DNA of 64,000 nt from assembly GCA_965246885.1 (NCBI GenBank), contig OZ251992.1, forward strand, positions 2,144,001 to 2,208,000, read 5' to 3'. The stretch's first letter is position 1. Each line of letters opens with the position of its first letter. Under the pieces are notes generated by a model. The model saw only the letters and a program-made list of their open reading frames with translations. It made no database searches and was not told the DNA's origin. Below, in pieces: positions 16,539 through 40,900 of this stretch. Made by a program: the position numbers and the translations under genes. This stretch comes from Abditibacterium sp. GTDB lineage: Bacteria > Armatimonadota > Abditibacteriia > Abditibacteriales > Abditibacteriaceae.

Positions 16539-16554
16539 GGCCGCGCCAAGCATC

Positions 16555-16680
16555 GGCGCAGTTAATTCTTCCGTTGGCGCGTGCGCGTCATTCGGTGGCG
16601 CGGCTAATTCTTTTGTCGGCGCGTGCGCGTCACTCACCGGCGCGACCCGGCGACTCGTCGGCGCGGCCCGGTGGATGCTC
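16555..16680. repeat. Degenerate 21-bp-period tandem array (6 units, GGCGC anchor)
   Basis: GGCGC recurs at 16555, 16576, 16597, 16618, 16639 and 16660. Confidence 0.9.
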
Positions 16681-18596: not shown

Positions 18597-18626
18597 GAGT
18601 GGGTTCCTGCTGGCAACTATGGCTTC

Positions 18627-18696
18627 CGTAGGGACGCAGCTTGCCGCGTCCGTCGGGTCACGATTTGGAACGGACGCGGCAAGCAGCGTCCCTACG
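18627..18696. repeat. GTAG-family REP doublet (REPIN-like inverted repeat)
   Basis: 27-bp arms CGTAGGGACGCAGCTTGCCGCGTCCGT and ACGGACGCGGCAAGCAGCGTCCCTACG (one mismatch) with a 16-nt spacer. Confidence 0.8.
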
Positions 18697-18701
18697 TTGG
18701 T

Positions 18702-20018: not shown

Positions 20019-20777
20019 TTAAACCTCCGCGAACTGCGCCTTGATGGGGTCGTAGCCGCCCGCTTCCAATTCGAGCGCCAGTTCTTTGCCGCCACTGCGC
20101 ACGATTTGGCCGCGATACAGAATGTGCACGAAGTCCGGCACGATGTAGTCGAGCAGGCGCTGATAGTGCGTGATGACGACGGTCGCCGTCGTGGGCGACT
20201 TTAACGCGTTGACGCCGCCCGCCACCACTTTCAAGGCGTCTATATCCAGCCCGGAGTCCGTCTCGTCCAGCACTGACAGGAGCGGCTCCAAGAGCGCCAT
20301 TTGGAAAATCTCCGACTTCTTCTTTTCCCCGCCTGAAAAGCCCTCGTTCACCGACCGCTTGAGGAACTGCTCGTCCAAGTTCACCAACTTCGACTTCGCC
20401 TTGACCAGCTTGAGGAACGACAGGGCGTCCAACTCCGGCAGCCCCTTGTATTTGCGAATCCCGTTGAGCGCCGCGCGCAGAAAGACCTGCGTGTTGACGC
20501 CCGGTATCTCGATGGGATACTGAAAGGCGAGGAACAACCCTTCCGCCGCGCGCTCTTCGGGCGCCAGATCAAAGAGGTTCTGGCCGTTGAACAGCACCTC
20601 GCCGTCCGTTATCTCGTAGTCGTCGCGCCCCGCCAAGACCGACGCGAGCGTGGATTTGCCCGACCCGTTCGGCCCCATGACCGCGTGCACTTCGCCTGCG
20701 CCGACCGATAAATTGATGCCGCGCAGGATTTCTTTGTCCTCGATGCGCGCGTGTAGGTTCTTAATTTCTAAAAGCAT
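20019..20777 (-). CDS. sufC: Fe-S cluster assembly ATPase SufC
   Basis: GPNGSGKST, AFQYPIEIPGV, NEGFSGGEKK, LDETDSGLDIDAL. Confidence 0.97.
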   Translation of the reverse strand: MLLEIKNLHARIEDKEILRGINLSVGAGEVHAVMGPNGSGKSTLASVLAGRDDYEITDGEVLFNGQNLFDLAPEERAAEGLFLAFQYPIEIPGVNTQVFLRAALNGIRKYKGLPELDALSFLKLVKAKSKLVNLDEQFLKRSVNEGFSGGEKKKSEIFQMALLEPLLSVLDETDSGLDIDALKVVAGGVNALKSPTTATVVITHYQRLLDYIVPDFVHILYRGQIVRSGGKELALELEAGGYDPIKAQFAEV

Positions 20778-20795
20778 GATGGGTGGTTCCGACGT

Positions 20796-22241
20796 TTAGC
20801 CGACGCTCCCTTCCAACGAGATGCCCAATAACTTCTGCGCTTCGACGGCGAACTCCATTGGTAGCTCGCGGAAGACCTCTTTGCAAAAGCCGTTGACGAT
20901 CATCGAAACGGCGTCTTCCGTCGAGATGCCGCGCTGATTGCAATAGAAGATTTGGTCTTCCCCGACTTTCGAGGTGGACGCTTCGTGCTCCACTTTCGCC
21001 GTCGGGTTGCGCACCTCGATATACGGGAAGGTATGGGCGCCGCACCGGTCGCCAATGAGGAGCGAGTCGCACTGCGAGAAGTTGCGCGCGTTGTCGGCGC
21101 CCTTGAGCACCTTGACCAGCCCGCGATACGAGTTCTGGCCGCGCCCCGCCGAAATGCCCTTGGAAACAATCGTCGAGCGCGTGTTCTTGCCGATGTGAAT
21201 CATCTTCGTCCCTGTATCGGCCAACTGCGCGTTATTGGTAACGGCGACCGAGTAGAACTCGCCGACGGAGTTATCGCCTTGCAAGATGACGCCGGGATAC
21301 TTCCACGTGATCGCGCTCCCCGTCTCGACCTGCGTCCACGAAATCTTGCTGGACTCGCCCCGGCAGGCGCCGCGCTTGGTGACGAAGTTATAGATACCGC
21401 CTTTGCCGTTCGCGTCGCCGGGATACCAGTTCTGGACGGTGGAATACTTGATGCTCGCCCGCTCCAGCGCGACCAACTCCACGACCGCCGCATGCAGTTG
21501 GTTGGTGTCGAACTTGGGCGCGGTGCAACCTTCGAGGTAGGACACCTGCGCGTCGTCCTCGCAGACAATGAGCGTCCTCTCGAACTGCCCGGAATCCTGC
21601 GTGTTGATGCGGAAGTACGTCGAGAGTTCCATCGGGCACTTCACGCCTTTGGGAATGAACACGAACGAGCCATCCGAAAACACGGCGGAGTTGAGCGCCG
21701 TGAAGTAGTTGTCGGTATGAGGAACGACCGACCCCAAATACTGCCGCACGAGTTCGGGATGCTCGCGCACGGCATCGGAGAACGAGCAAAAGATGATGCC
21801 CAGTTCCGACAGCTTCGCTTTAAACGTCGTCGTAACCGAAACCGAATCGAACACGACATCCACCGCGACGTTAGCAAGGAGCTTCTGCTCTTCCAAGGGG
21901 ATGCCCAGCTTGTTGAAGGTTTCGACGAGCTTCGGGTCTACCTCGTCCATCGAGGCCAACTTGGGCTTTTCTTTGGGCGCGGAGTAGTAGATAATGTTCT
22001 GGTAGTCCAGTTCGGGGTAGTGCGCGTTGAGCCAGTGCGGTTCTGCGAGCGTCGTCCAATGGCGGTAGGCTTTGAGGCGCCAGTCGAGAAGCCACGCCGG
22101 TTCGCCCTTTTTCAGCGAGATGGCGCGCACCACGTCCTCGGACAGGCCGCGCGCAAAGGAATCGGACTCGATGTCGGTAACAAATCCGGCGGTGTATTCT
22201 TGCGAAGCGAGCGCTTCGATGGTCGGTGTTTCGGTGCTCAT
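20796..22241 (-). CDS. sufB: Fe-S cluster assembly protein SufB
   Basis: [49 protein letters not shown]. Start at ATG 22241 (MSTETP). Confidence 0.97.
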
Positions 22242-22403
22242 AACGACTCGATGGGCTTTGGGAAGCTGCACACAGAGGTTTCCCAAACGGTGCCTTACAC
22301 CCGACACAAACGAAGCGAGACGGTTCCCGCGCCGCCCACAATTCTCCTATTCATTTCGTCGGAATTGACTCTAAAGATGAAACTGCGCCGCTCAAAGACG
22401 GCA

Positions 22404-22909: not shown

Positions 22910-23449
22910 TTAAGTCCAAAAGCGGCGCCATAAGCGTTGCCATCGGAGGGGCTGGCACCCAGTCGCGCGGCGCTGGCGATTCCATAAACGCACCTGCGCC
23001 CGCAGTTGCGGTTTCATCGGCAGGCCCGCGTAGACCGCATGAACATGTTCGGCACCTTTCCAATGCGGCCCTGTGCGAAACCACGCTATAAAGCCCGCGT
23101 GCGCCAAATCTTCGAGAAACTCGGCGCGCTTACGGGGTGTCAGGTCGTCCACTCCCAAGTCCACCGCCGCACTGTAATCCTCGCCGCCAACCGTGCCGTC
23201 ACGCAGGTGGTACCCCTTTGAACGCGGGTTATTCCCAAGCGTCTGGCCAATGCGAATCGGGCTAATGCCCGCCGCAAAACACGCCCCCCTGAACGCCCGC
23301 CATGCGACGGGCGCCATCCCTGTGGGCCGCTCAAACGGACGCGCGAGGTGGCGCGGCGGCAGAAGTACCCCGACGCGGTAACTGCGCCACCCCCAAAACG
23401 CCACGAGTGCGGCCAGAAGCAGGCAGGAAAAGAGCAAAAAGCGGCGCAC
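22910..23449 (-). CDS. Membrane-anchored hypothetical protein, possible Zn peptidase (M15/LAS-like)
   Basis: N-terminal TM, then GYH...AAVDL...EHVHAV. GTG start at 23449 is assumed. Confidence 0.6.
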   Translation of the reverse strand: MRRFLLFSCLLLAALVAFWGWRSYRVGVLLPPRHLARPFERPTGMAPVAWRAFRGACFAAGISPIRIGQTLGNNPRSKGYHLRDGTVGGEDYSAAVDLGVDDLTPRKRAEFLEDLAHAGFIAWFRTGPHWKGAEHVHAVYAGLPMKPQLRAQVRLWNRQRRATGCQPLRWQRLWRRFWT

Positions 23450-23495
23450 CCGAACAGTTAGACCGCGCGGCGTAAACTGCGACAACCTAATCGCC

Positions 23496-24749
23496 ATGAA
23501 ATTAACCCCAGTCGGCAAATTCGCCCTCTTCCTGCTTCTGCTCGGCGCGCTCGCGGGCGGCCTGCGCTTCTTTGCGCACAAGGCGGGCACCCCCACCACC
23601 GTCACGCAAAACGGCGGCGGCTCGAACGCGGGCACCGGTAGCGGCAATGGTGGCGGCTCGCAAACGGGCACCAATCCAAACGGTGGCGGCACCGGTGGCG
23701 GCGACACTGGCACGGGTCAAGCAGGTGGCGTTGCGGCGACGGTGGGCGCGAACGAGTTGCAAATCGTGACCAGCGCTTCCAAGCGCGGTTGGCTCAACGA
23801 GCAAATAGACAAGTTCAACGCGCAGTCCGACGTGAAGCTCGTGCCCAAACTCGTCGAAACGCGCGAAGCGATGCAGCAGATTTTGTCGGGCCGCCTCAAG
23901 CCCGCGCTGTGGAGTCCCTCGTCCGTCATCTGGGCCGACCGTTTGGCCGAAGTTCTCAACCAGCGCACTGGCTCGTCGCCGCTCGATACCGGCGATCCGA
24001 ACTCCTACCGCTCCGTGCTCAAAACGCCCATCGTCTTTCTGACCACGAAAGAGAACGCCAAGATTCTGCGCCCGCTCCTCAGTTCCGCCGAGTGCTGGCC
24101 CAACGTCCAGAAACTCTCCAAGGGCGACACCCCATTCCCCGGCGGCTTCAAGTGGGCGCACGCCGACCCGCTCAACGCCAACTCCGGCATGCTGACGCTC
24201 GCGCTTATCATCAACGACTACGCCAACCGGACGGGGCAGACCGGCTCGATTCAAAACGTCGCCACATCGGGCGCCTTTCTGGACTATCTGAAGTCGCTGG
24301 AATCGAAAATCGTCTACAACACCGCCGTTCAAAAAGGCTCGTCCGCGCTCGTCAAGTCGTTCACCGAAGACCCGTCGCGCTATTCGTTCATCACCGCCTA
24401 CGAAGCGGCGGCAGTGGAAGCCATCGCGCAAAACCCTGACCTCGCGGTTATCTACCCCAACCCGACCGTCAACGCCGAAAACGCCGTTGCTTTCCTCAAC
24501 TGGCCCGATTTGAACTCACAGCAAAAAGCGGCGGGCCTCGCGTTTCTCAAGTTCGTTGGCACGCCCGCCTCGATGCAAGACGGCCTCAAAGAACACTTCC
24601 GCCCTCTCAAGGGCGCGGGCAACGACCCGCAGCTGGCGGCACTGTCGGGCAACGGCATCGAAACCAGCTACTCGGCCATCGAACTGCCGCCGTACTCGGT
24701 TCTCAACGGCGTGGCGTTCAAGTGGCGCACCGAAATCGCGGGCAAGTAG
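23496..24749 (+). CDS. Extracellular solute-binding protein (SBP_bac_11-like) with Gly-rich linker
   Basis: N-terminal anchor, G/T/N-rich linker, PALWSPSS, HADPLNANSG and IYPNPT motifs. Confidence 0.8.
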   Translation: MKLTPVGKFALFLLLLGALAGGLRFFAHKAGTPTTVTQNGGGSNAGTGSGNGGGSQTGTNPNGGGTGGGDTGTGQAGGVAATVGANELQIVTSASKRGWLNEQIDKFNAQSDVKLVPKLVETREAMQQILSGRLKPALWSPSSVIWADRLAEVLNQRTGSSPLDTGDPNSYRSVLKTPIVFLTTKENAKILRPLLSSAECWPNVQKLSKGDTPFPGGFKWAHADPLNANSGMLTLALIINDYANRTGQTGSIQNVATSGAFLDYLKSLESKIVYNTAVQKGSSALVKSFTEDPSRYSFITAYEAAAVEAIAQNPDLAVIYPNPTVNAENAVAFLNWPDLNSQQKAAGLAFLKFVGTPASMQDGLKEHFRPLKGAGNDPQLAALSGNGIETSYSAIELPPYSVLNGVAFKWRTEIAGK

Positions 24750-24769
24750 AATCCCCGGCCCGCCGTCGT

Positions 24770-24916
24770 CTGTCGCCGAGCGCCAGACGGGCGCCAACGA
24801 GTGACAGACATGCGCCACTCGCCGCCAGCCGTGCGCCAACCAGTGACAGACGTGCGCCACTCGCCCACACAGGCGCGCCGACGAGTGACGCGCGTCTGTC
24901 GGCCATTGGCGGACGA
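24770..24916. repeat. Degenerate 21-bp-period tandem array (7 units, 42-bp higher order)
   Basis: GCGCC at 24791, 24812, 24833, 24854 and 24875; flanking in-register units start CTGTCG at 24770 and 24896. Confidence 0.9.
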
Positions 24917-25214
24917 CGGCGCTCGCGTGGGCGACCTCCCCCAGTCATCCCTCGAATTCGCCATTCCGCAAAAAGGAGAATTTGTGCCAATTTTAATGAG
25001 AATCGGTTAGAGCAGTAGTGCGCGGATTCGCCGGAAAACGTCCGCAAAAGTAGTAAGATGATGAATGTCCTTCCACGCAGGCGACCGCAAAGAACTACCC
25101 CCGGCAAGGCCGGAGGCACGGCGACACAGGGAAGGGGCCGCCGCTCGAAACGATGCGCAAAGCAACGCGCCGTCTGGTGGAGCGTGGCCAAGGTAATGAA
25201 AGGACAAAACTCTC

Positions 25215-27035
25215 ATGAAACTGACTCCTGTTGGAAAAGTCGTCGCCCTCATCCTCGTGGCGGGCGGCGCGGTAGGCGTGTGGAAAAGCTGGAGCAAAAT
25301 TGCGCCCAGTGCGGCCACCAAACCCTCCGTTGGCGTGGGCAAGGTGGAACTGCCTGCGGGCAAAGTGGATTCGGGGGCAAGCGGCGACATCCAACCCGTC
25401 GCGGTTGCGCTGGGCGACACCTCGCCCGGATGTCCCGGCGACCCTGAAGTGCGCTTGCAGGGCTACGCTTGGAACGCGCAGCAAGGCATGCTCCTCGCCG
25501 TTGGCGGCACGCAAGCGACGGCGGGAAGCCTGATGTGCCAGAACGGAATTAACTTCAAGTGGAGCCGCCAAGACGACAACTCCAAGCTGCAAGAAGCGCT
25601 CGTTGCGTTCGCTACGCGGCTCAAAGCGGGCGACCAGAACCCGACGGCGGGCGCGCATTTCGTCACCATCATGGGCGATGGCGGCGCCGCGTTCCTCACG
25701 CCTCTCAACGAGACGCTGCGCAAAATCGGGCCAGAGTATCAAGCGAAGATTATAGATGTTACGGGTTACTCGCACGGCGAGGACAAGCTGATGGGGCCGG
25801 TCGCGTGGCGCGACACCCCCGCCGCGTCCAAGGGGGGCGTGGTGGCGGGTGTTATCCGCGATGGCGACTGGAACATCGCCCAAAAGTGGCTGGGCGACAA
25901 CGGACTCAAGACCAACCCCGACGAGAAAACCTACGACCCCGACGCCCTCAACTGGATCAACGCGAGCGACTATATAGACGCGGGCGAGAAATACGTCGCG
26001 GGCTACACCGAAACCCGCCCCGTCGTGCGCAATGGCGTCAAGACCGGCGAAACCAAGCAGATCAAGGTGGACGGCGTGGTGACGTGGACGCCCGGCGATG
26101 TCAACGTCGCCACCAAAAAGGGCGGCCTCGTGTCCATCGTTTCGACGCGCGAATACTCCTCGCAAATGCCGTGCGTCGTGATTGGCATAGACAAATGGTG
26201 CAAAGCCAACCGCCCCCTCGTCCAAAAGATGATCGCCGCCATCGGTGAGGGCGGGCGCCAAATCCAATCCAACCCGGCGGCGCTCGACCGCGCCTCGCAG
26301 ATTGCCGCTCTCGCCTTCAACGAAAAGGGCGCCGACGCGTCCTACTGGAAGAAGTACTTTACCGGCGTCACGCAAAACGATAAGACCGGTCAGCCCGTCG
26401 CGCTTGGCGGCTCGTCGGTCAGCAACCTCGGCGACTCGCTCAACGAGATGGGCTTGGTGCCCGGCTCGGCGAACTTGGTGGGCGCAACGTACACCGTGTT
26501 CGGGCAAATCGTTTCGGCGCAATATCCCGAATTGCTCCGCTCTGTCCCGCCCGAAGCGAGCGTGATAGACACGTCGTATCTGAGCGCGCTGGCGAAAGGC
26601 GGCGCATCGGGTGGCCCGCGCATTGTTCCGGTCAAAGCGCCGGTTTACGCAAAGCCCAAACCCGGCGTCAAACCGCTACCGGTGGTGTCCACAACGCAAT
26701 TGAACATTCAGTTCAACGCGAGCAAGGACACCTTTACGCCGCAAGCCAAAGCGCAACTGCTGCAACTCGCGCGCAGCCTACTGATTGCGGGCGGCACGAC
26801 CATCGAAGTTCACGGCCATACCGACAACGCGGGTGACCCGCGCAAGTCCATGCCTTTGTCCGAAGCGCGCGCTTTCGCCGTGAAAAATTATCTGGAGCAT
26901 TTGTCGCCCAGGAACTTTCCTGAAGGCCGTATCCAAACCTTCGCGCACGGCGAAACGCAGCCGCTCGTGCCGAACTCCTCGCCCGAAAACCGCGCGAAGA
27001 ACCGGCGAGTGACCATTATTCTGCGCGCGGCGTGA
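25215..27035 (+). CDS. ABC-type periplasmic binding protein fused to a C-terminal OmpA peptidoglycan-binding domain
   Basis: N-terminal anchor, PBP-like core (GYSHGEDK, VTWTPGD), Pro/Lys linker, OmpA-C motifs IEVHGHTDN, LSEARA and NRAKNRRV. Confidence 0.88.
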   Translation: MKLTPVGKVVALILVAGGAVGVWKSWSKIAPSAATKPSVGVGKVELPAGKVDSGASGDIQPVAVALGDTSPGCPGDPEVRLQGYAWNAQQGMLLAVGGTQATAGSLMCQNGINFKWSRQDDNSKLQEALVAFATRLKAGDQNPTAGAHFVTIMGDGGAAFLTPLNETLRKIGPEYQAKIIDVTGYSHGEDKLMGPVAWRDTPAASKGGVVAGVIRDGDWNIAQKWLGDNGLKTNPDEKTYDPDALNWINASDYIDAGEKYVAGYTETRPVVRNGVKTGETKQIKVDGVVTWTPGDVNVATKKGGLVSIVSTREYSSQMPCVVIGIDKWCKANRPLVQKMIAAIGEGGRQIQSNPAALDRASQIAALAFNEKGADASYWKKYFTGVTQNDKTGQPVALGGSSVSNLGDSLNEMGLVPGSANLVGATYTVFGQIVSAQYPELLRSVPPEASVIDTSYLSALAKGGASGGPRIVPVKAPVYAKPKPGVKPLPVVSTTQLNIQFNASKDTFTPQAKAQLLQLARSLLIAGGTTIEVHGHTDNAGDPRKSMPLSEARAFAVKNYLEHLSPRNFPEGRIQTFAHGETQPLVPNSSPENRAKNRRVTIILRAA

Positions 27036-27044
27036 GGCATCATT

Positions 27045-27926
27045 ATGAACTCCACTCCCACCGACGGGGCGCCCGCCGTCATTGCGGGCGCGCATTCATC
27101 TGCCGCCTTGCATGTGGGCGACCGCAAGCCGCGAAAGACGGATGGGCCGCTCGCGCTGTTTCTGCCCAACCGCCGCGTTTCGATGTCGGCTTTGCTCCTC
27201 GCGGGGTTGGTCGAGGCGGGGCTGTTCCTCGTTTTGTGGCTACTCAGTCCGTTTGATGTCCTCCCCAAGCCGCTTGAAGTCGTGTCGGCGTTGGGCCGCT
27301 TGTGGACGACGCAGGGCATGGGACAGGAGTTGGCGACTTCGTTCGGCCTCAACTTGCAAGCCCTGCTATGGTCGAGCCTCATCTCGTTGGGGCTGGCGTA
27401 TCTCACGGTGCTCCCGGTGTTTCGCCCGTTTGTGGCGGCGTTTTCCAAGGGGCGCTTTCTGTCTCTGGCGGGCTTCACCTTCATCTTTACGCTCGTTGTG
27501 GGCGGCGGGCGACCGCTTCAAATCTCCCTGCTGACGTTCGCCATCACCGTGTTTTACGTCACTTCGATGGCATCGGTCATTGCCGCCATTCCCAGAGCGG
27601 AGTTTGAGCATGCGCGCACGCTTCGCATGAGCGAGGGGCGCATCGTGTGGGAAGTGGTGATTTTGGGAACGGCGGACAAGGCTTTTGAAGTGCTGCGCCA
27701 AAACGCGGCGATGGGCTGGATGATGCTGTCGCTCATTGAAGGGATAGTGCGCTCCGGTGGCGGCATCGGCGCGATGCTTCTCGCAGAGTCGCACCATTTT
27801 ATGCTGGCCGAAGTGTTCGCTATCCAACTGGTGATTTTAGTTGTGGGGATGATGCAGGACTTCGCCATCGAGTGGCTGCGCCGCCTCTTGTGCCCGTATT
27901 CCGCCCTGACGCTGGAGCGCCCATGA
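27045..27926 (+). CDS. ABC transporter permease (nitrate/sulfonate-like)
   Basis: About 6 TM segments, EAA-like loop EFEHARTLRMSE, GGIG motif; stop overlaps the next ATG. Confidence 0.85.
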   Translation: MNSTPTDGAPAVIAGAHSSAALHVGDRKPRKTDGPLALFLPNRRVSMSALLLAGLVEAGLFLVLWLLSPFDVLPKPLEVVSALGRLWTTQGMGQELATSFGLNLQALLWSSLISLGLAYLTVLPVFRPFVAAFSKGRFLSLAGFTFIFTLVVGGGRPLQISLLTFAITVFYVTSMASVIAAIPRAEFEHARTLRMSEGRIVWEVVILGTADKAFEVLRQNAAMGWMMLSLIEGIVRSGGGIGAMLLAESHHFMLAEVFAIQLVILVVGMMQDFAIEWLRRLLCPYSALTLERP

Positions 27927-28750
27927 CCGATTATTCCTACCAATTGCGCGAAACGCTCGTTCACCTCGAAGGCGTTTCCAAGAGCTACGACGGCGTGCCC
28001 GTCCTACGCGACGTGAACATCGAAGTGAAGAACCTCGTGCGCCCCGAATGTCAGCAGGGGCAAGTCGTGGCGCTTCTGGGGCCGTCCGGCATGGGCAAGA
28101 CCACGCTGTTCCGCATCTTGGCCGGATTGGAGGTGCCCGATGCCGGACAGGTGCTGGTTGGCGCCGAGCAGAAACCCGTCCGGCGTGGGCAAATCGGCGT
28201 CGTGGCGCAGAACTACCCGCTTTTTGCGCACCGCACCGTCATGGGCAACCTCATGGTCGCGGGCGCGCAGGTCGGCTTGCGCGGAAGTGACGCCAAGGCC
28301 AAGGCCAGCGACTTGCTCGCGCGCTTTGGCATGGACGGGCAGGGGAGTAAATACCCCTCGCAACTGTCGGGCGGGCAAAAGCAGCGCGCCGCCATCGCGC
28401 AGCAGTTCATGTGCTCCGACGCTTTCTTGCTGATGGACGAGCCGTTTTCCGGCCTCGACATTCTCGCGCAGGAAACGCTCATCCGCTTTATCCGCGACAT
28501 CGCCGCCCACGACGAACTGATGACGTTCATTCTCATTACGCACGACATCTCCGCCGCGCTCCAAATCGCCGATACCGTGTGGGTCTTGGGCCGCGACCGC
28601 GATGAAGCGGGCCGCCCTGTTTCCGGCGCGCGCGTGCAAGCGAGCTTCAACCTCATCGAGCGCGGCTTGGCGTGGCACGAGGACATTGCCGCACTGCCGG
28701 AGTTCGCCCTCTTGCGGCGGGAAATCCGCGACTCCTTCGCGCGCTTGTAA
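27923..28750 (+). CDS. ABC transporter ATP-binding protein
   Basis: GPSGMGKT, LSGGQKQR, LLMDEPF, ITHD. Confidence 0.93.
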   Translation: MTDYSYQLRETLVHLEGVSKSYDGVPVLRDVNIEVKNLVRPECQQGQVVALLGPSGMGKTTLFRILAGLEVPDAGQVLVGAEQKPVRRGQIGVVAQNYPLFAHRTVMGNLMVAGAQVGLRGSDAKAKASDLLARFGMDGQGSKYPSQLSGGQKQRAAIAQQFMCSDAFLLMDEPFSGLDILAQETLIRFIRDIAAHDELMTFILITHDISAALQIADTVWVLGRDRDEAGRPVSGARVQASFNLIERGLAWHEDIAALPEFALLRREIRDSFARL

Positions 28751-28783
28751 GGGCACGCGGTTCGCTTAACTACAGGAAAGACT

Positions 28784-29623
28784 ATGAAGAACCGTTACTT
28801 GGCCGCCTTGCAGGAAAACGCTAACCTCATCGGCATGGCGTCGGTGGTGGCGCTGTCGGCGGCGACGGGCGCGTGGGTGTTGCTCCTTGCGGGTGTGGTC
28901 GCCGAGGCCGCGTATCTCATCTTCGTGCCCGACTCCAAGTGGTTCGAGAAGCGGTTGTCGGCGCAGCACGACGCCGAAATCGAAGCGCACCGCCAGAAAA
29001 TCAAGCTCGAAACCCTGCCGCGCCTGCGCCCCAGCCTACGCGCGCGCTTCGAGAAGTTGGAAACCGCGCGCGCCGGAATCGAGCGCCAAGCCGCGCCGGA
29101 CAAGAAGTGGATGCGCGAAGTGCTGCGCAAGCTCGACTTCCTGCTCGAAAAGTTTCTCCAATTCGCCTTGAAGGATCAGCAATTCCGCAATTACCTTTTC
29201 GAGGCGCAGCAGGAAATCCACCCCACGCCCACTCCGCGCGGCGCCGACCCGCTCGAACTCAACGACAAATGGACGCGCGACTGCGTGCAGTTTTTGCAAG
29301 CCTCCTACACGCGCGACCTCGACCAATTGCAAGCCCAGCGCGACGACGAGACGGACGACTCCACCAAAGCCATCCTCGAAAAGCGCCTCGAAGTGCTGGG
29401 CAGGCGCCGTGACTTCATTGCCCGCATCGGGAAAATTGTCGCCAACCTCACGCAGCAGTTGGCGCTGTTGGAGGACACCTTCGGCCTCATTTCCGACGAA
29501 CTGCTCGCCCGCGCGCCCGAACAAGTGCTCGGCGACATAGACGACGTGGTGAGCCAAACCAACGCCATGACGCAGGTCTTGGAAGAACTCGCTCCTTTTG
29601 AAAGGATGCTGTCGAACGTGTAA
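28784..29623 (+). CDS. Membrane-anchored alpha-helical / coiled-coil protein
   Basis: Two N-terminal hydrophobic segments followed by charged heptad-rich helices; RBS-like AGGA upstream. Confidence 0.8.
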   Translation: MKNRYLAALQENANLIGMASVVALSAATGAWVLLLAGVVAEAAYLIFVPDSKWFEKRLSAQHDAEIEAHRQKIKLETLPRLRPSLRARFEKLETARAGIERQAAPDKKWMREVLRKLDFLLEKFLQFALKDQQFRNYLFEAQQEIHPTPTPRGADPLELNDKWTRDCVQFLQASYTRDLDQLQAQRDDETDDSTKAILEKRLEVLGRRRDFIARIGKIVANLTQQLALLEDTFGLISDELLARAPEQVLGDIDDVVSQTNAMTQVLEELAPFERMLSNV

Positions 29624-29659
29624 TGGGCAAGCGTCCTCACCCCATAAACTCCCCCTCCA

Positions 29660-30370
29660 ATGAGCCTTCTTTCCAAAGCCATGTCGCTGTTAGTCGAGCA
29701 AGCGCCCAAGCCCAATATTTCCAGCTTGCGCTCGGACGACATCACCACCGACGACATCCCGCTCCCCGCCGACGCGCGCTTGAGCTACGAGATGGACACG
29801 CCGCGCCCTAAGTCTGTCGCCGACATCGCGCGCGAAACCGACGGCCCCGACCTCGACAAGGTTCAGGTAGACGGCGCCGCCGTGCCCGCAACCAGCGCCG
29901 ATAAGCCGCTCGACTTTCCCGCCATCTACCGCGCCGCCAAACTGCCCGAAGCCGAAGTGGGCGCGGAGAAGATACTGGAAATGCTCGCCTCGCTCCCGCA
30001 AGAGTTGCCGCTCGAAACCAAGCGCGCCACCGTCAAAGCGATGCTGTCCACCTTCGCCAAGACGACCGGCGCCACGCCGGAAACCCTCGTCGCCGACGCT
30101 TCGCGCAAACTCGCCGCGCTCCAGTCGTTCTCGACGTTCATGGAAAAGAAGACGACCGACACCATCACGGCAGGCGAAGCCGCCATCAACGACCTGCAAG
30201 CCCAAATCGAAGCCAAACGCACCGAACTTCTGCAAGCCCGCACGGAACTGGCGCGCGTGCAGCAGTCCTGCGAGAGCGAGGCCCACCGCCTCGACGACGT
30301 GCTGGAGTTCTTCTCCCTCGACCAAGGCGCCTCCAAATACGCGCCGGGAAGCGCGGGCGCCGCCGCGTGA
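29660..30370 (+). CDS. Hypothetical protein with C-terminal coiled coil
   Basis: Acidic low-complexity N-terminus and helical C-terminus (INDLQAQIEAKRTELLQARTELARV); co-oriented in the operon. Confidence 0.78.
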   Translation: MSLLSKAMSLLVEQAPKPNISSLRSDDITTDDIPLPADARLSYEMDTPRPKSVADIARETDGPDLDKVQVDGAAVPATSADKPLDFPAIYRAAKLPEAEVGAEKILEMLASLPQELPLETKRATVKAMLSTFAKTTGATPETLVADASRKLAALQSFSTFMEKKTTDTITAGEAAINDLQAQIEAKRTELLQARTELARVQQSCESEAHRLDDVLEFFSLDQGASKYAPGSAGAAA

Positions 30371-30723
30371 AAGACGGCGCGGCCCCGCCCGAGGACACCT
30401 TTTACTGTGCCCGTTGCCAGACCGTGTTCGCCGACAGGCCGCTCTTTTGCCCGAACTGCGACTCGCTCAAGAAACAGCGCGCCCAATCGAAAGGAACAAG
30501 CGGCTCCTTGTTTCGCTACCTCTGCCTGCTTTTCCTTGTGCCGGGTCTGCTGTCGGCTGTGGTGGGGATAGTTTTCTGGCCGTTCCTCTTCTTCGCTATC
30601 CCGTTCCTTCTGCTGTTTGCCGTGTTCGGAGCAATGGCGGGAGTGCCCGCGCTGTGGGAAGATGTGCGCGATTTAGAGGGGCAATTCAGAGGGTGGCAAT
30701 GCCGAGTGGAAGAGGACGACTAA
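30367..30723 (+). CDS. Small zinc-ribbon membrane protein
   Basis: CARC...CPNC then two TM segments; GTGA overlap with the upstream stop. Confidence 0.6.
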   Translation: MKDGAAPPEDTFYCARCQTVFADRPLFCPNCDSLKKQRAQSKGTSGSLFRYLCLLFLVPGLLSAVVGIVFWPFLFFAIPFLLLFAVFGAMAGVPALWEDVRDLEGQFRGWQCRVEEDD

Positions 30724-30810
30724 CTGGCGCCCGCGCCCTGTGCGCCCGCACGCCCCGTTGTGGCTAAAATAGTTCTGGTGTAAATCCGTCCGTCCCGCGT
30801 CTTTTCAATC

Positions 30811-31569
30811 ATGCTCAAACGCATTTCTAACGTCTTCAAAGCTATCCTCAATATGTTCGTGTCCGGCGCCGAGCGCGCCAACCCGAAGATGATGCTGGAG
30901 CAGGAGAAAGAGAACCTGCGCGTCCAAATCGCGCACTACAATCAGGGCCTCGCCACGCACGCCGGGTTGTGCGAGCGCTTGATGAGCAACGTCAAGCGCC
31001 TCGAAGCGCAGGAAAAGGACGAACGCGCCAAAGCGGGAGCCAACCTGCGCGCCGGAAACCGCGAATTGGCGGGCCAATACGCCCTCCAACTCCAAGCCAC
31101 GACCGGGCGTTTGGCCGAAGAGCGCGCGCAATTGGAAGGCGCCGAAAAGACCTACCGCGACCTCGTCAAGACGCGCGACATCACCGTCGCCGACGCCAAA
31201 AAGAAGATCGAGGACTTGAAGTACGCCATCGGTGACCTCGAAGTCAAGCGCGCCACCGCCGAAATGATGGAAATGGCGGGCGGCATGATTTCTTCAATTG
31301 GCGGGTCGGGCGACACGCTCAACCGCCTCGAAGAAATGGTCGGCGAGGAGCGCGAAAAAGCCGGAGGCCGCGCCCGCGTCGCCAAAGACTCGCTCAACAC
31401 CACCGACTTCCAAGCCAAAGAATCGGAACACGCCGCCCTCGCCGACCAAGCCCTCGCCGACTTCGCCGCCGCCGAAGGCATGGCCCTCGACCCCGCCATG
31501 CCCTCCGATTCGGGCACCCCCGGCGCCGCTAAGAAAATGGGACAACAGGGGCAGAGCGCGAGTGGGTGA
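30811..31569 (+). CDS. PspA/IM30 (Vipp1, bacterial ESCRT-III) family protein
   Basis: Amphipathic N-terminus MLKRISNVFKAILNMFVS, ERANPKMMLEQ (the family E-[DN]-P motif), long coiled coil, GNRELA turn, LNRLEEMV. Confidence 0.88.
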   Translation: MLKRISNVFKAILNMFVSGAERANPKMMLEQEKENLRVQIAHYNQGLATHAGLCERLMSNVKRLEAQEKDERAKAGANLRAGNRELAGQYALQLQATTGRLAEERAQLEGAEKTYRDLVKTRDITVADAKKKIEDLKYAIGDLEVKRATAEMMEMAGGMISSIGGSGDTLNRLEEMVGEEREKAGGRARVAKDSLNTTDFQAKESEHAALADQALADFAAAEGMALDPAMPSDSGTPGAAKKMGQQGQSASG

Positions 31570-31585
31570 TTCTTCCGCGCAAGCG

Positions 31586-31623
31586 CAAACCCCGCAACTC
31601 GATGGAGACGCGGGGTTTGGTTT
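31586..31623. terminator. Hairpin between convergent pspA-like and vapC genes
   Basis: CAAACCCCGC...GCGGGGTTTG 10-bp stem followed by a T-rich tail. Confidence 0.6.
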
Positions 31624-32008
31624 AGCTGGTTGTCTTGATGGGATAACCGAGGACGGCGGTGTCCACCGTGATAATCGTCAAATCGTGTTGCAGCGCCTGA
31701 CAAATCAAGATGCGGTCGAACGGATCACGATGCAGGGATAGCAAGGTCGGCAAGTAAGAAACGGTCTGTTCGTCAATAGCCAGCGTTGCGATTCGGTGCT
31801 TTTGTCGTTGTTCGGGAATGAATATCTCTGGCGATGCGGGCAAAGGCAACTTGCCGATTTGATGCTTGACGACAATCTCCCACACCGACGCCGCACTCAG
31901 ATAAACCTCGTTTTGCGGGTCGCGGATAAGAGACGAGGTCGCATTGGATAGCTGCCTATCGCTCGTGATGAACCACAGAAAGATATGAGTGTCGAGGAGG
32001 AATCTCAT
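31622..32008 (-). CDS. vapC: Type II TA toxin, VapC/PIN family
   Basis: MRFLLDTHIFLW, SAASVWEI, HRDPFDRILICQA, TVD: the PIN acidic residues are present. Confidence 0.92.
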   Translation of the reverse strand: MRFLLDTHIFLWFITSDRQLSNATSSLIRDPQNEVYLSAASVWEIVVKHQIGKLPLPASPEIFIPEQRQKHRIATLAIDEQTVSYLPTLLSLHRDPFDRILICQALQHDLTIITVDTAVLGYPIKTTS

Positions 32009-32355
32009 TTCCCCTCAAACGATGCAATGATGTCTTCGGGCAAAGGCGCGTCGAAGTCATTGGGTACGACGAACTGACCCGCACATAATCCCATTGGACG
32101 CAACTCCGATTTCGTTGAAAGGCTGACTTCGGCGGTGTCGTAAGAGTCCATCTCCGGCGCGTCCCAATCGCCAAAAGTTGCAAACGACGCGCGAAGTTCC
32201 TCTGCCTCGGTTCGCCCGATGCCGCGCGCCCTCAAATCAACTCCCGCTTCATCTATAAAAGTTACGATGACGCGCGTTTCACTTTTCACGTCGGTGGGCA
32301 ACTCGGCGAGGTCTACGCGCCCGTTGCGATATGTCCCTTCAACAGTTGTCAACAT
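32005..32355 (-). CDS. Antitoxin (apparently chimeric)
   Basis: Overlaps the vapC start (ATGA). C-terminal RPMGLCAGQFVVPNDFDAPLPEDII is typical of antitoxins paired with this VapC subtype. Confidence 0.75.
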   Translation of the reverse strand: MLTTVEGTYRNGRVDLAELPTDVKSETRVIVTFIDEAGVDLRARGIGRTEAEELRASFATFGDWDAPEMDSYDTAEVSLSTKSELRPMGLCAGQFVVPNDFDAPLPEDIIASFEGK

Positions 32356-32488
32356 GGTTTTGCCTCGCCTTCATTTTACCAACCCTACCGCGAGAGAGAC
32401 CAAGCTCACCCGCCAAAAGCCGGAGCCACGAACCAACGCAGTGCCCCGTTCCATACTGTAGATGGCTTTCAAGGCGTGCTTGTCACGC

Positions 32489-33028
32489 CTAATCGTTCAG
32501 TCTGCTTGCTTCACCCGCTTCTCTTGCTCTGCGACACCATTTCGTCGGTGGCGCTGCTTCCTCGGCAACACGCAACAGAGATTCTGCATCCTGACCGTTG
32601 TCAGGATAAAACGCCACCCCAATCGTAAGCGTGATCTGAACGACGTGCTGGTTGACGTTTAACGGCTGCTTGGCCAATTGCTCACGAATCTGTTGAGCGA
32701 CCATTCTGGCTTCGGCTCCCGATGCGGACGGCAACACCACGAAAAATTCATCGGTGCAAAAGCGACAGACCGTGACTTTGTCGCCTACAATCCCTTCAAA
32801 CCTTTGCGCCGACTGACACAGCACAAGGTCACCAGCCTCGTGGCCAAGCGAACAATTTAAATCCGAAAAGTGTTCGATGTCGGCAAAAAGAACGGCAGCC
32901 GTTTCGCCCCGTTGCTTTGCTTCGGCTACCGCACGTTCAAGCTGCGCCATGCCATAGCCCCGATTGTAAAGGCCGGTAAGCCGATCACGCTGGTTGTTCA
33001 TAGCGAACATTATAAGCCAAGGCGCCAA
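32489..33028 (-). CDS. Stand-alone degenerate GGDEF domain protein
   Basis: DRLTGLYNR, GHEAGD and TIGVA are retained; the signature reads RFCTDEF instead of RxGGDEF. Confidence 0.8.
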   Translation of the reverse strand: MAPWLIMFAMNNQRDRLTGLYNRGYGMAQLERAVAEAKQRGETAAVLFADIEHFSDLNCSLGHEAGDLVLCQSAQRFEGIVGDKVTVCRFCTDEFFVVLPSASGAEARMVAQQIREQLAKQPLNVNQHVVQITLTIGVAFYPDNGQDAESLLRVAEEAAPPTKWCRRAREAGEASRLND

Positions 33029-33112
33029 CGAGCCAATTAGAAGGGCGTCGGAGCATCCTGCGCCGCGACGTTCTTATGCCCGCCGCTTTTACGCCAAACT
33101 TCCCCCTACACA

Positions 33113-34750
33113 ATGGCTGTTTCCACTTGGTCGCAAGACCTCATCGCGCGCTATGAATCGGGGGCGAGCAACCAGTTCCTGTTGTATGGCAACGTCGAGG
33201 ACGAGTTCCTGCTGCGCGACGGGAAGGTGGGCACCATCCGCGACTTTCTGCTTGACACCTTGCTCGGCGGGTTCGATGTCGTGCTTTCCTACGACCTTGG
33301 AAACGGGTTGCGGGTCGAGAAGGGCGCGCCGATATTTTCGACTTGGCCCGCTTACAAGGCCAACCCGACTTTGCCGCGCGAGCCGCGTCCGGCGCTGGAT
33401 GCGCTTACACATTACGGGCGCTTCGCGGCGAATCTGGCGCGCGTCGGGCAATTGGCGCCGCGCGTGGCGGTGGTTGTCGGGAGCGTGCAACTGCTCGCGC
33501 CCGCCAGTCCGGGCGGCGTTGACCACGAAACGGGCGCCCTTGCGCTTATTATGCGCGAGTGGAGCCGCGACGCCCTGCTGGCCGATTCGCCCTTCGCGTC
33601 GTTCCTGATTGCCGAAAACCTCAACGATTTGCACGCCCTGCTGGTGCAGAACCCGCGCGCGGCGCGCTTCAAAGTGCCGCTTCCCGATGGAGATAATCTC
33701 GGCGCCGCGTTGGACGAGTGGAAAAAGACCGCGCCCATCGCGCTTTCGCAGTTCGCTGATGCTCTGCCCAACTTGGGCCAGCAACTCGCGGGCGCGTCGC
33801 TCGCCGCGCTGGACTCCCTCCTCAAAACCCGCGAACACGCCAAAACACCCCTCGCGCCGAACGATGTCGCGCGGCTCAAGAAGGAGTTGGTCGAGTCCGA
33901 TGCGGGGAGCCTGATTGAGTTCATCACCCCCACGCGCACCCTCGACGACCTCTACGGGCAGGAAAAGGTCAAGGCGCACCTGCGGGCCGACATCGCGCTG
34001 TGGACTCGCGGCGAATTAGAAGCGCTGCCCAAAGGCTACCTTCTGTGCGGCCCCGTCGGAACCGGCAAGACATTCTTGGTCGAGTGCTTAGCGGGCGAAG
34101 CGGGCGTGCCCGTCGTTAAAATCAAGAACTTCCGCGACCGATGGATTGGCTCGACCGAAGGCAACTTGGAGAAAATCTTCCGCTTGCTTGGCGCGCTCGG
34201 ACGCTGCTACGTTTTCGTGGATGAAGCGGATCAGTCGCTCGGCAAGCGCGATTCCGGGAGCGGCGATTCGGGCATTTCGGGGCGCGTCTACGGCATGTTC
34301 GCCGAGGAGATGAGCCGGAGCGACAACCGGGGCAAGATTATCTGGATACTCGCCAGTAGCCGCCCCGACCTCATCGAAGTGGACTTGAAACGACCGGGCC
34401 GCATAGATGTGAAAATTCCGCTTTTCCCGACGACAACACCCGAAGAATCCTTCCAACTCGTGCGCCAACTGCTCAAACGGCGCGGTCTGGACTTGGGCGT
34501 AGGCGGCTTCGAGGCCGTCAAAGCGCAGCTGCCTCTTCTCCTGACTCCCGGTGCGGCGGAAGCGCTCGCCGTCAAGGTCTTCCGCGATGTCAAAGTCGGC
34601 GGCAAAGCGCCCATAGATGCCCTCAAAGATTCGCTGCAAACTTACCGTCCCCCCATTGCGCCCGAAGTGTTGGGCGCGCAAATCGAGTTAGCGGTGCAGG
34701 AGTCCAGCGACTTGGAATGGGTGCCCGAAATGCTGCGCCCACGCAGTTGA
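33113..34750 (+). CDS. Classical-clade AAA+ ATPase with a probable inactive N-terminal ATPase-like domain
   Basis: Walker A GPVGTGKT, Walker B VFVDEAD, SRH SSRPDLIEVDLKRPGRID. The N-terminal ~270 aa has an alpha/beta pattern (FLLYGNVED) without an intact P-loop. Confidence 0.9.
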   Translation: MAVSTWSQDLIARYESGASNQFLLYGNVEDEFLLRDGKVGTIRDFLLDTLLGGFDVVLSYDLGNGLRVEKGAPIFSTWPAYKANPTLPREPRPALDALTHYGRFAANLARVGQLAPRVAVVVGSVQLLAPASPGGVDHETGALALIMREWSRDALLADSPFASFLIAENLNDLHALLVQNPRAARFKVPLPDGDNLGAALDEWKKTAPIALSQFADALPNLGQQLAGASLAALDSLLKTREHAKTPLAPNDVARLKKELVESDAGSLIEFITPTRTLDDLYGQEKVKAHLRADIALWTRGELEALPKGYLLCGPVGTGKTFLVECLAGEAGVPVVKIKNFRDRWIGSTEGNLEKIFRLLGALGRCYVFVDEADQSLGKRDSGSGDSGISGRVYGMFAEEMSRSDNRGKIIWILASSRPDLIEVDLKRPGRIDVKIPLFPTTTPEESFQLVRQLLKRRGLDLGVGGFEAVKAQLPLLLTPGAAEALAVKVFRDVKVGGKAPIDALKDSLQTYRPPIAPEVLGAQIELAVQESSDLEWVPEMLRPRS

Positions 34751-36615: not shown

Positions 36616-36769
36616 AGAGGGCGGCGACGCGATGGGAGACGTCTATCACCAAATCCCAGACGTCTGGGACTGCTCGGCGGACGTCCGCCATCGCGTCGCC
36701 GCCCTCTGGGACTCGGCGACAGACGTCTGGGACTCGGCGACAGACGTCTGGGACTCGGTTACAGACGTC
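36616..36769. repeat. Degenerate 21-bp-period array (GACGTC anchor) with nested inverted repeats
   Basis: GACGTC at 36638, 36659, 36680, 36722, 36743 and 36764; perfect 20-bp inverted repeat 36616-36635/36688-36707. Confidence 0.9.
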
Positions 36770-37996: not shown

Positions 37997-40900
37997 GTGT
38001 CTTCTTCGAGTCCTGTCTTTTTTGACCCTTCCGGCGCGCGCGCGCGGCGCTTGCGGCTGTGGGGCGCCGTCGCGGGCGTTTTGGTCGCGGTGTTGACGGT
38101 TGTTTTTGCTCTGACCGTGATGCACACGCCCGCTCCGGCGCGCGCGCGCACGTGGAGCAAGCTGGTGCGCTTGGTAGACAACAAGCCGGAGCGGTGGAAT
38201 GTGAATTACTATTTCGCGTCCTCGCCTTCCCATGCCAATGTGCACGGCGCCCCCGATGAAATGGGCGTGACCCGTTGGGGAGTGTGGGAGCAAATCGCCA
38301 CGCCGCCAACGGGGGAAATGCGCTTCACGGCGCGCGGTGGGCGCACCGGCGGCCAGTGGGAGCCGGTGCCAACTGCCGCCCCCTCTGTTGTCAACGGGCG
38401 CGTGGTAGCGGCCTTCTATGATCCGTCGCAGGCGACTGGACTCGCGTCGTTTCGTGTGGCTGCGCCACACCTGACGCACGTTTTACCCGCTTGGATCCAT
38501 CTCGCGGACGACGGCGCCGGATTGGATTTGACGGACTTTAACTTCGATGACAACCCCAACAACCGCGCGCTGATTTCGCTCGCGGAGCAGAAGAACGTCG
38601 CGGTCGTTCCAGTGTTTTCCAACGCGCACGGCGGCGATTTCGACCCGCAACGCGCGCACCTCTTGCTGTCTTCGCCCGACAAGCAACGGGTGCTCGTGTC
38701 ACGCTTGGTCGCGTGGGTGCAGGAACACCACTTCGCGGGGTTAAACCTCGACTTGGAAAACTTAACCGATGCGGACGCGGCGCTGTATCCCCGCTTCGCG
38801 GCCTTCGCCGCGCACGAACTAAAGGCGCGCGGTTTGGAGTGCTCGATTGATATCGCCGGAGATGACGCGCCCGACACAGAAGATGTCGCGCGCGTTCATG
38901 CCCTGACCGCGCCGTGCGACTTCGCGGTGTTAATGGCCTACGACCAGCACGAAGCGAGCGGGCCGGAAGGCCCCATCGCGGCTTTCGATTGGACGACGTG
39001 TGTGGTGCGGGAGGCGCTCCGCAGTGTGCCCGCCACGAAACTGGTGCTGGGCGTGGGCAACTACGGCTACGATTGGAACTTGGAAGACAAAACGAAGAAC
39101 GCGGCGCTGTCGTATCAAAGCGCCATCGCCCTCGCACGCGCAACAGCAGGCAAGACGGCCAACGTCCAGAACATTGAGTTCGACCCGCAAACACTCAACG
39201 CCACGTTCAACTACGCCGATACGACGGGCAACCAGCACGAGGTGTGGATGCTCGACGCGGCTTCGGCGTACAACGACTGGAAGCTGATGAACCGCGCCCA
39301 TTTGCGCGGCGGCGCGCTGTGGTCGTTGGGGCAGGATGACCCGTCGGTGTGGGATTTTTGGCGCAAAACCGCCGTTCCCGACGCCCGCGCGCACGCTGAT
39401 ATGATGCGTGTGCACTTCCCCTTCGAGGTGGCCTATACCGGGCGCGGCGATATACTCACGGTTGCTTCGCAACCGCGCGAGGGCGCTCGCGCGTTCGATT
39501 TCGACTACGCGACGGGGCTGATCACCGACGAGAATTACCGCCGCTTTCCAGCCTCGACGGTGATTGCCCAAAGCGGTTACTCGCGCCGCGACATCGCACT
39601 CACCTTTGACGACGGCCCCGACCCCGCGTGGACGCCCGCCGTGCTGGATGCCCTGCGCAAATACCGCGTGCCCGCCACCTTTTTCGTGGTTGGCGCTCAG
39701 GCCGAGCGCAATCGTGGCCTCGTGCGGCGCACTTGGGACGAGGGCCACGAAATTGGCAACCACTCGTTCAACCACCCCGACCTCAGCGACGTGTCTGATG
39801 CGCGCGCGGACTTCGAGATCAACGCCACGCAGCGCGCCATCGAAGCCATTACCGGCCACGCCACCACGCTTTTTCGTGCGCCGTACGACTCCGACATGGA
39901 GCCGCAAACCGCCGACGAAGCGGCCACCTTGGAGCGCGCCAGCGCCTTGGGCTACAAGTCCATCGGCAACGCCGTTGACCCGCAAGACTGGAACCCTACC
40001 ATCGCCAACGACGCCGGAGTTTCGCGCGCCCGCACCGCGAGCGACATTGCCGAGGAGATTTTAAGCGAGGCGCGCGCCGGTAAGGGGAACATCGTGCTCC
40101 TTCATGATGCGGGCGGCGACCGCTCCAATACCGTCGCGGCATTGGGTATGGTCATTCCGCAGTTGCAGCGCGAGGGCTTCCGCTTTGTGACCGTTTCGCA
40201 CCTCATGGGGCAACCGCGCGCCGTCGCCATGCCCCCAGTCACAGGGCATGAAGCGGTTGTCGTCGCGTTTGACCGCGCCATTTTCACGACGGTCTTCTCC
40301 TTTCAGTGGCTGATGGGCGCGGCGTTCGTCGCGGCCATTGGACTGGGGTTGGCGCGCATGGCGGTTATTGTCCCGCTTGCCCTCGTCGCGCGCCGCCGCG
40401 AACTGGCAAAGACCTTCGACCCCGCTTTCACGCCGCTTGTTTCAGTTGTAGTGGCGGCTTACAACGAGGCCAATGTCATTGAGCGCTCGCTCCGCTCCAT
40501 TTTGGCGTCCGATTACGCGCACATGGAAGTCGTCGTCGTGGATGACGGCTCGAAGGACGGCACGTCCGAGGCGGTTCTGGCCGCTTTTGGCGACGACGCG
40601 CGCGTGCGCTTGCTGCGCCAAGCCAACGGCGGCAAAGCCAGCGCGCTCAACCACGCCCTGACGGAAGCGCGCGGCGACATTTACGTCGGCTTCGACGCCG
40701 ACACCCAAGTGGCGACGGACGCCGTGTCGCTCCTTGTGCGCCATTTTAGCGACCCCGCTATTGGCGCTGTCGCGGGCAACGTGGTCGTGGGAAATCGCAA
40801 CAACCTGTGGACGCGGTGGCAGGCCGTCGAGTACATCGCCAGCCAGAACCTCGACCGACGCGCGCAGGCGTTGTTGGATGCCGTCGTCGTCGTGCCCGGA

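Follow-up and report, generated by a model that had tools for sequence, protein, structure and literature searches.

Organization of the Gene Cluster

The window analyzed here, 64,000 nt of contig OZ251992.1 from Abditibacterium sp., contains a cluster of nine co-oriented genes in which a PspA/IM30 protein stands between an ATP-binding cassette (ABC) importer with its helical partners on one side and a tandem AAA+ ATPase on the other. The cluster consists of two separable modules, a PspA–ATPase pair and an importer unit with the helical proteins g5 and g6, and the ATPase may recycle PspA polymers. The principal genes are listed below by window position (SBP, solute-binding protein).

23496..24749, + strand: g1, N-terminally membrane-anchored SBP with a Gly-rich linker (PF13531, 46.9 bits vs. 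a cut-off of 25)
25215..27035, + strand: g2, signal-anchor, solute-binding fold and C-terminal OmpA-like peptidoglycan-binding domain
27045..27926, + strand: g3, ABC importer permease, NitT/TauT-like (PF00528, 17.9 bits; EAA-like loop)
about 27890-28750, + strand: g4, ABC ATPase (PF00005, 101 bits)
28784..29623, + strand: g5, transmembrane (TM) helical protein with an N-terminal membrane hairpin and a cytoplasmic helical bundle
29660..30370, + strand: g6, soluble helical protein of an unnamed family
30811..31569, + strand: g8, PspA/IM30 (PF04012, 46.7 bits vs. 33.9)
33113..34750, + strand: g9, tandem AAA+ ATPase (PF00004, 82 bits)

The nine co-oriented open reading frames (ORFs), including the Zn-ribbon gene g7, and an opposite-strand insert between g8 and g9 are all open at their coordinates. 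Pfam and NCBIfam agree with the gene set given in a preliminary description of this DNA, weakly for the permease; Pfam does not match g5 and matches g6 and g7 only below threshold. In two sequencing runs of a single study, possibly of the source sample itself, contigs span g4–g8 and pspA–insert–ATPase with zero differences. A promoter and terminator scan of the cluster gave chance-level output only.

The cluster is real and intact, and its context is one known from earlier in silico work, as the preliminary description had noted for operons with PspA, AAA, ABC and PBP-OmpA genes. Passages of Ravi et al. (2024, mSystems, PMC11237479) report PspA beside a protein in which an inactive AAA+ domain precedes a second one, as well as longer operons that also encode a TM "divergent Snf7" protein, an ABC ATPase, a permease and PBPB-OmpA (example OGG56892.1). 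ATP-dependent membrane remodeling is proposed there, and an analogy to ESCRT/Vps4 is drawn. The gene set and the ATPase, with a dead first (D1) and an active second (D2) AAA domain, are the same as here, whereas g1 and g6 are additional in the present cluster; the passages on this context hold no tail motif and do not split the ABC-g5-g6 genes from the PspA–ATPase pair. No experimental study of this cluster type was found in a literature search with poor coverage of subscription papers.

Linkage of PspA and the ATPase

Among 31 ATPase loci from the genome collection, one with a 51-residue remnant (L041) and five short of upstream DNA were excluded, leaving 25 informative loci from Abditibacteriota, Acidobacteriota, Planctomycetota, Verrucomicrobiota and Sumerlaeota. 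In 23 of them, the ATPase is preceded by a PspA gene on the same strand, no more than 1.1 kb away in 22; the misses are L012 and L040. A phylum-wide survey of 201 genomes found the close ATPase clade in 21, the close PspA clade in 22 and both in 21. The ATPase search scored at most six candidates per genome, and "lacking" the ATPase means here that it was not found. In three genomes (G004, G009 and G012), the ATPase has been relocated far off, yet both PspA and ATPase are retained. Moreover, a sister ATPase clade (about 30% identity) has PspA within 2 kb in 18/33 genomes, and PspA is present in 32/33. The neighborhood link between the two genes, at first proposed from the window alone, is supported by the 23 loci in five phyla and by the 21 of 22 PspA-clade genomes with the ATPase clade.

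The genes of the cluster could also be co-regulated neighbors only, a nutrient importer beside an envelope-stress pair, with the ATPase as a general stress unfoldase that has no special relation to PspA. This would account for the ATPases found outside the operon in three or more genomes and for the megaplasmid relatives, which have no annotated PspA nearby. However, ATPase genes of two clades with about 30% identity, and of five phyla, have stayed next to PspA, and genes overlap or nearly touch in several loci, so mere co-regulation appears improbable.

The megaplasmid relatives (L070 and L071) are distant tandem ATPases of Paenibacillus and Brevibacillus, found near DUF262 and nrnB genes. 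In AP024152.1, the last gene of the operon is a 51-codon ATPase remnant (L041:10001-10153), and a full ATPase copy (L012) is located ~640 kb from it, beside downstream genes like those of the window, a rearrangement in which both modules were kept. Upstream of pspA in two other loci (L036:5079-8154 and L037:5414-8402), an SBP-vWA protein and a g1-like SBP replace SBP-OmpA and ABC.

PspA and Its C-Terminal Tail

The PspA of the cluster, g8, is the sole PF04012 match in its genome, as is the case in the 12 other genomes of the genus that were searched; the match spans positions 3–216 of the 220 in the Pfam model. In close-clade PspAs, helix 5 is followed by a variable linker and then by K-[TS]-M-G-P, which reads K-K-M-G-Q in g8 (residues 241–245). 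PspAs linked to the sister ATPase have tails such as KTMQP, RTMEP and KTMLP, and the C-terminal end of ATPase-free PspAs is mostly an amphipathic-looking helix. In G139, a genome of 580 contigs in which the ATPase was not found, the tail reads KSAGP, a single anecdotal example that would fit decay of the motif after ATPase loss.

Counted beyond residue 215, the pattern [KR].M.[PSAQ] is present in 21/25 close-clade, 13/14 sister-linked, 7/15 sister-unlinked and 0/20 ATPase-free or second-copy PspAs, with an expectation of 0.5–0.8 from shuffled tails. A strict pattern gave 15/25, 11/14, 7/15 and 0/20 for the same groups, and the loosest one 21/25, 13/14, 11/15 and 3/20. Among the 4633 ORFs of the Abditibacterium sp. 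genome, a [KR].MG[PSQ] ending was found in PspA and one other ORF only. The motif itself is real, and it is a candidate recognition handle for the ATPase, although its association with the ATPase may be a single inherited event.

A Tandem AAA+ ATPase

The D1 domain of g9 (about residues 1–263) is a degenerate AAA domain with GNVED at the Walker A position. D2 contains GPVGTGKT, VFVDEAD, a pore-loop R-W-I-G and the KRPGR arginine fingers. Across 23 aligned sequences, D2 is near-invariant (GPVGTGKT, [VI]F[VI]DEAD, [KR]W[VI]G, LASSRPDLIE[VI]DLKRPGR): the pore-loop W344 and KRPGR are invariant in 23/23, and sensor-1 is ASSRP in all of these relatives. The Walker A and B motifs and the second region of homology, described earlier as intact, are so in the C-terminal half; the N-terminal half is the degenerate domain.

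The predicted model of g9 has a predicted local distance difference test score (pLDDT) of 81, with an alpha/beta N-terminal domain, and Foldseek ranked Drg1, 55LCC, Cdc48 and p97 at the top. In VIA, residues 1–427 matched Rix7 (Z 15.2, 361 aligned, root-mean-square deviation (rmsd) 5.7) as well as p97 and Pex1/Pex6 (for the latter, Z 13.7, 375 aligned, rmsd 4.5). Residues 1–258 alone matched clamp-loader AAA+ domains (Z 11), with no Walker A/B there, and Vps4 chains aligned to D2 only, tied with FtsH and others. A D1–D2 profile comparison of g9 by itself was not significant. The nearest named relatives (80–88%) come mostly from Abditibacterium-type genomes.

No MIT domain was matched by Pfam at E 0.05, and g9 also lacks an N domain. 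Pfam found no helix-turn-helix (HTH) or other output domain, and neither Pfam nor NCBIfam a sigma54-activator AAA+ domain with HTH. The CdvC model NF041006 scored 36–37 bits on g9 against a cut-off of 650, vs. 133 and 115 for two other AAA+ ATPases of the same genome. With no MIT domain, a Cdc48/Pex1-like D1–D2 fold and a low CdvC score, g9 is not Vps4 and does not have the Vps4-like architecture first envisaged. It is a classical AAA+ ATPase with tandem domains, D1 being dead and D2 active, and is equipped to thread a substrate.

We lean, by a modest measure, toward an ATP-driven PspA recycler. A g9 hexamer would dock on the [KR]xMxP tail after helix 5, thread PspA subunits and, in this way, pull them out of the polymer, which would make the ATPase a functional analogue of Vps4 without being Vps4. 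Alternatively, PspA could regulate the ATPase or serve as its adaptor, comparable to its role toward PspF, and not be the substrate; once PspA had moved to the membrane, the ATPase would extract or unfold g5 or damaged inner-membrane proteins. This role also explains the co-occurrence of PspA and ATPase and suits a p97/Pex1-like fold, and PspF is a known AAA+ partner under PspA control, according to passages of a 2025 review (PMC7619361). Nevertheless, a threading handle would better explain a conserved motif in a disordered tail beside an ATPase with its pore loop intact, and the ATPase is devoid of a DNA-binding or other output domain. The regulator role is therefore considered rather unlikely.

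The Importer Module and Its Separability

The OmpA domain of g2 (PF00691, 61 bits, residues 500–597) has the HTD and SEARA residues, and its putative solute-binding part was assigned through remote relatives at the same position that match NMT1. Among solved structures, g2 was matched through the OmpA part only and g1 not at all. The permease g3 matches PF00528 (E 0.0027) and TIGR01183 (E 0.00019), both below cut-off, and g4 is intact: Walker A GPSGMGKT, signature LSGGQ, Walker B LLMDEP and H-loop ITHD. Genes g2–g4 are predicted to form a Type I ABC importer, NitT/TauT-like, with intact catalytic motifs. The additional SBP, g1, is an optional partner: it is near the module in some relatives and absent or elsewhere in others.

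In the 201 genomes, strong matches to g5 were found in 43, to g6 in 35 and to g2 in 30, the latter two always with g5. The Jaccard index is 0.95 for ATPase and PspA and 0.81 for both g5–g6 and g2–g6, vs. 0.49–0.56 for the ATPase against g2, g5 or g6. Neither ATPase clade was found at E 1e-30 in 12 of the 30 g2 genomes, and every one of the 12 encodes a different PspA at another site, in one case about 6.5 kb off. In the nine of these 12 that were fetched, an operon devoid of PspA and ATPase contains g2 and g5 and, in most cases, the permease, the ABC ATPase and g6. The cluster is thus made up of two separable modules, PspA–ATPase and SBP-OmpA/ABC/g5/g6, as the overlap of ATPase and PspA is near total while the g2 operon occurs ATPase-free.

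The preliminary description had treated the whole as a single obligate unit whose ABC/SBP-OmpA part would sense the cell wall or be tethered to it and import no solute. Indeed, the membrane anchor and peptidoglycan-binding domain of g2 can span from membrane to wall, the same combination is listed in another phylum in passages of Ravi et al. (PMC11237479), and g2 is present in 18 of the 21 ATPase genomes. Against this stand the ATPase-free g2 genomes and the nine fetched operons described above. Furthermore, the ABC module lies within 10 kb of the ATPase in only 5/25 ATPase loci, and all ABC catalytic motifs are intact, leaving sensing in place of import unsupported. A single obligate machine is, on this evidence, quite improbable.

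The Helical Partners g5 and g6

The model of g5 (pLDDT 79.6) consists of a membrane hairpin and a helical bundle, and its homologues amount to 423 representatives at 50% clustering. Remote homologues adjoin PspA genes of Planctomycetota and Acidobacteriota (HHalign 92.8%) and PspA genes of the sister clade (95.8%). By its position beside both PspA and the ABC module, g5 is the predicted bridge between the two, and sequence and model make a membrane anchor or adaptor likely. It probably corresponds to what Ravi et al. call the "TM + divergent Snf7" protein, with the Snf7 label not confirmed here: PF03357 (Snf7) had zero matches in the Abditibacterium sp. genome, the model passing its cut-off in 0/14 controls as well.

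An ESCRT-III fold had been suggested for g5 and g6, and the comparisons gave no such result, with HHalign values to PspA of 0.1% for g5 (against this PspA clade) and 0.8% for g6. With VIA, one ESCRT-III chain (Z 7.4, rmsd 6.7) appeared for g5 among unrelated helical bundles, below designed helical bundles at the top, and Foldseek found nothing at E 0.001 or better. BAR-domain matches to the fold were non-specific (rmsd about 20–30), and those of the g5 profile to PDB sequences were coiled-coil noise only. Negatives from narrow profiles are weak, as a narrow PspA profile at E 1 missed the PspA/Vipp1 chains of known structure. Among Pfam-named Atlas clusters, that of Rv2743c (PspM) is nearest to g5, at 0.88.

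The g6 family has a conserved N-terminal helix and a C-terminal LDDVLEFFSLD motif and occurs together with g5 and the ABC module; apart from the PspA comparison above, it gave sub-threshold coiled-coil matches only. An ESCRT-I identity was rejected: Mod_r (Vps37) was matched in 55/104 members, all below cut-off and among many coiled-coil families. TAL-repeat matches proved to be an artefact, a single 26-residue match summed over repeats. In the cultured Abditibacterium utsteinense, the homologues of g5 and g6 are consecutive genes. Paralogues of g6 were also seen with a g1-like SBP only, g5, ABC and PspA being absent (L143, L144 and L148). In one protein (P0349), an ABC ATPase is fused to most of a g5 domain, which could be genuine or result from a frameshifted call.

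Insert, Repeats and Neighboring Genes

Three further features belong to the cluster region.

24777..24889, no strand: 21-bp-period intergenic repeat, member of a genome-wide family and not system-specific
30367..30723, + strand: g7, protein with a Zn-ribbon (CxxC...CPxC) and 2 TM segments
31622..33028, - strand: insert with PIN (VapC-like), VapB-like and degenerate GGDEF proteins

The PIN/VapB/GGDEF block looks, from sequence, like a local insert outside the system; its GC content is 0.54 vs. 0.61–0.65 in the eight conserved genes. The Zn-ribbon gene g7 (GC at third codon positions, 0.72) is likely a local insert too. Its protein, listed with the module in the preliminary description, is not a conserved partner: tblastn revealed no homologue in any fetched locus, and there is none elsewhere in its own genome. 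The GGDEF protein (32489-33028, -) has CTDEF as its signature and is probably catalytically dead. The pspA–ATPase spacer (window 31570-33112; also L013, L029, L041 and L054) resembles an insertion hotspot of the family, its cargo differing by genome: unrelated genes of about 1, 1.5, 2.6, 6 and 12 kb.

The SBP genes g1 and g2 are 466 nt apart, and the gap contains the 21-bp-period repeat. Tandem repeats of this period occur genome-wide, within the window also at 16554-16671 and 36705-36769. The genome has 342 Tandem Repeats Finder rows of period 21, and a GACAGAC / GTCTGTC core is present in 123/463 rows of period 21/42/63. The units differ between arrays; elements like the repetitive extragenic palindromes (REP) are one guess.

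An unnamed gene (22910-23713, -) is divergent from the operon, and its C-terminal 150 residues are kept at the same position in L013, L049 and L051. Both flanks are ordinary: upstream lies a SUF-type Fe-S operon (17367-22307, -), with sufS assigned by Pfam and the others judged from sequence, and downstream a GH18-deacetylase-GT2 fusion (37997-41554, +).

Comparison with Known Systems

Like ESCRT-III/Vps4 (CdvB/CdvC), the cluster combines a protein of the ESCRT-III superfamily with a classical-clade AAA+ ATPase that has an aromatic pore loop. Both also have a short motif in the C-terminal tail of the polymer, although that of PspA need not resemble the MIT-interacting motif (MIM). Unlike Vps4 and CdvC, g9 is MIT-less, has two AAA domains and scores far below the CdvC cut-off. 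It is closer to the Type II AAA+ unfoldases (Cdc48/p97/VAT, Drg1, Rix7, Pex1/Pex6), with which it shares the D1–D2 fold (Z 13.7–15.2, about 360–375 aligned), and its best sequence matches are VAT and Cdc48. In Pex1/Pex6, D1 is likewise dead and D2 active. However, g9 lacks an N domain, the structural-alignment identity is 11–18%, and TIGR01243 is far under its cut-off.

The mycobacterial ClgR-PspA-PspM system likewise has PspA with a two-TM partner, and PspM holds a PspA species at the membrane, as stated in part of a recent report (10.64898/2026.09.09.750162). The cluster showed no ClgR-like gene, and the mycobacterial operon as described includes neither this ATPase nor this importer. E. coli PspF-PspABC also pairs PspA with an AAA+ ATPase; PspF, in contrast, is an NtrC-type AAA+ transcription activator with HTH, and g9 is of the classical clade with no HTH match. 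An anti-phage role was rejected, PADLOC matches being generic only (ZorB via the OmpA domain, IetA via the AAA domain).

Proposed Mechanism

In the recycler mechanism, PspA would bind the stressed inner membrane by its N-terminal amphipathic helix and polymerize, as in its family. The membrane hairpin of g5, adjacent to PspA, may recruit or nucleate it, as PspM does in mycobacteria, and the importer would take up a small solute, any coupling to PspA being through g5/g6. A more far-reaching version appears possible, if doubtful: a bacterial ESCRT-III/Vps4 equivalent made from different parts. The dead D1 ring of the p97/Pex1-like ATPase would read a private [KR]TMxP degron in the tail of one PspA clade and drive polymer turnover, and the separate, wall-anchored SBP-OmpA/ABC/g5/g6 module would report the membrane-to-wall state and recruit any PspA present.

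Several points weigh against PspA recycling by g9. The case for the pair comes from gene context and motif, and g9 is without an MIT or N domain for reading a tail. The 21 ATPase genomes belong to two families only and reflect few independent events. The sister-clade ATPase is not linked to PspA in 15/33 genomes, some of them on short contigs, and no PspA is annotated within 8 kb of either of the two megaplasmid relatives that were fetched. The motif patterns are post hoc, picked once the tails had been seen. Moreover, 49/54 PspAs from ATPase-bearing genomes form one clade on a long branch (SH-like approximate likelihood-ratio test, SH-aLRT, 95) in a quick tree from which G289, one of 50 PspA loci, was left out, its full protein missing. 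The motif-bearing PspAs being monophyletic, shared ancestry alone could explain the association of motif and ATPase. According to passages of another study (PMC11746142), PspA itself hydrolyses ATP and most PspAs are without such an ATPase; a partner ATPase is, therefore, not required in general. As for g5, its likeness to PspM amounts to the single Atlas lead, and PF25587 matched neither g5 nor a homologue at E 10 in five genomes, control genomes falling below the cut-off too.

Significance

Since the gene context was already published, what is new here is that it divides into two modules, that g6 represents an unnamed family and that the PspA tail bears a motif open to testing. A passage of the 2025 review (PMC7619361) states that a Vps4-like ATPase "appears absent in bacteria", and the paper placing PspA in the ESCRT-III family leaves the existence of an equivalent ATPase open in its relevant passages (PMC8281802). 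The PspA–ATPase pair is a strong candidate for this missing bacterial equivalent, and the tail motif allows a one-residue test.

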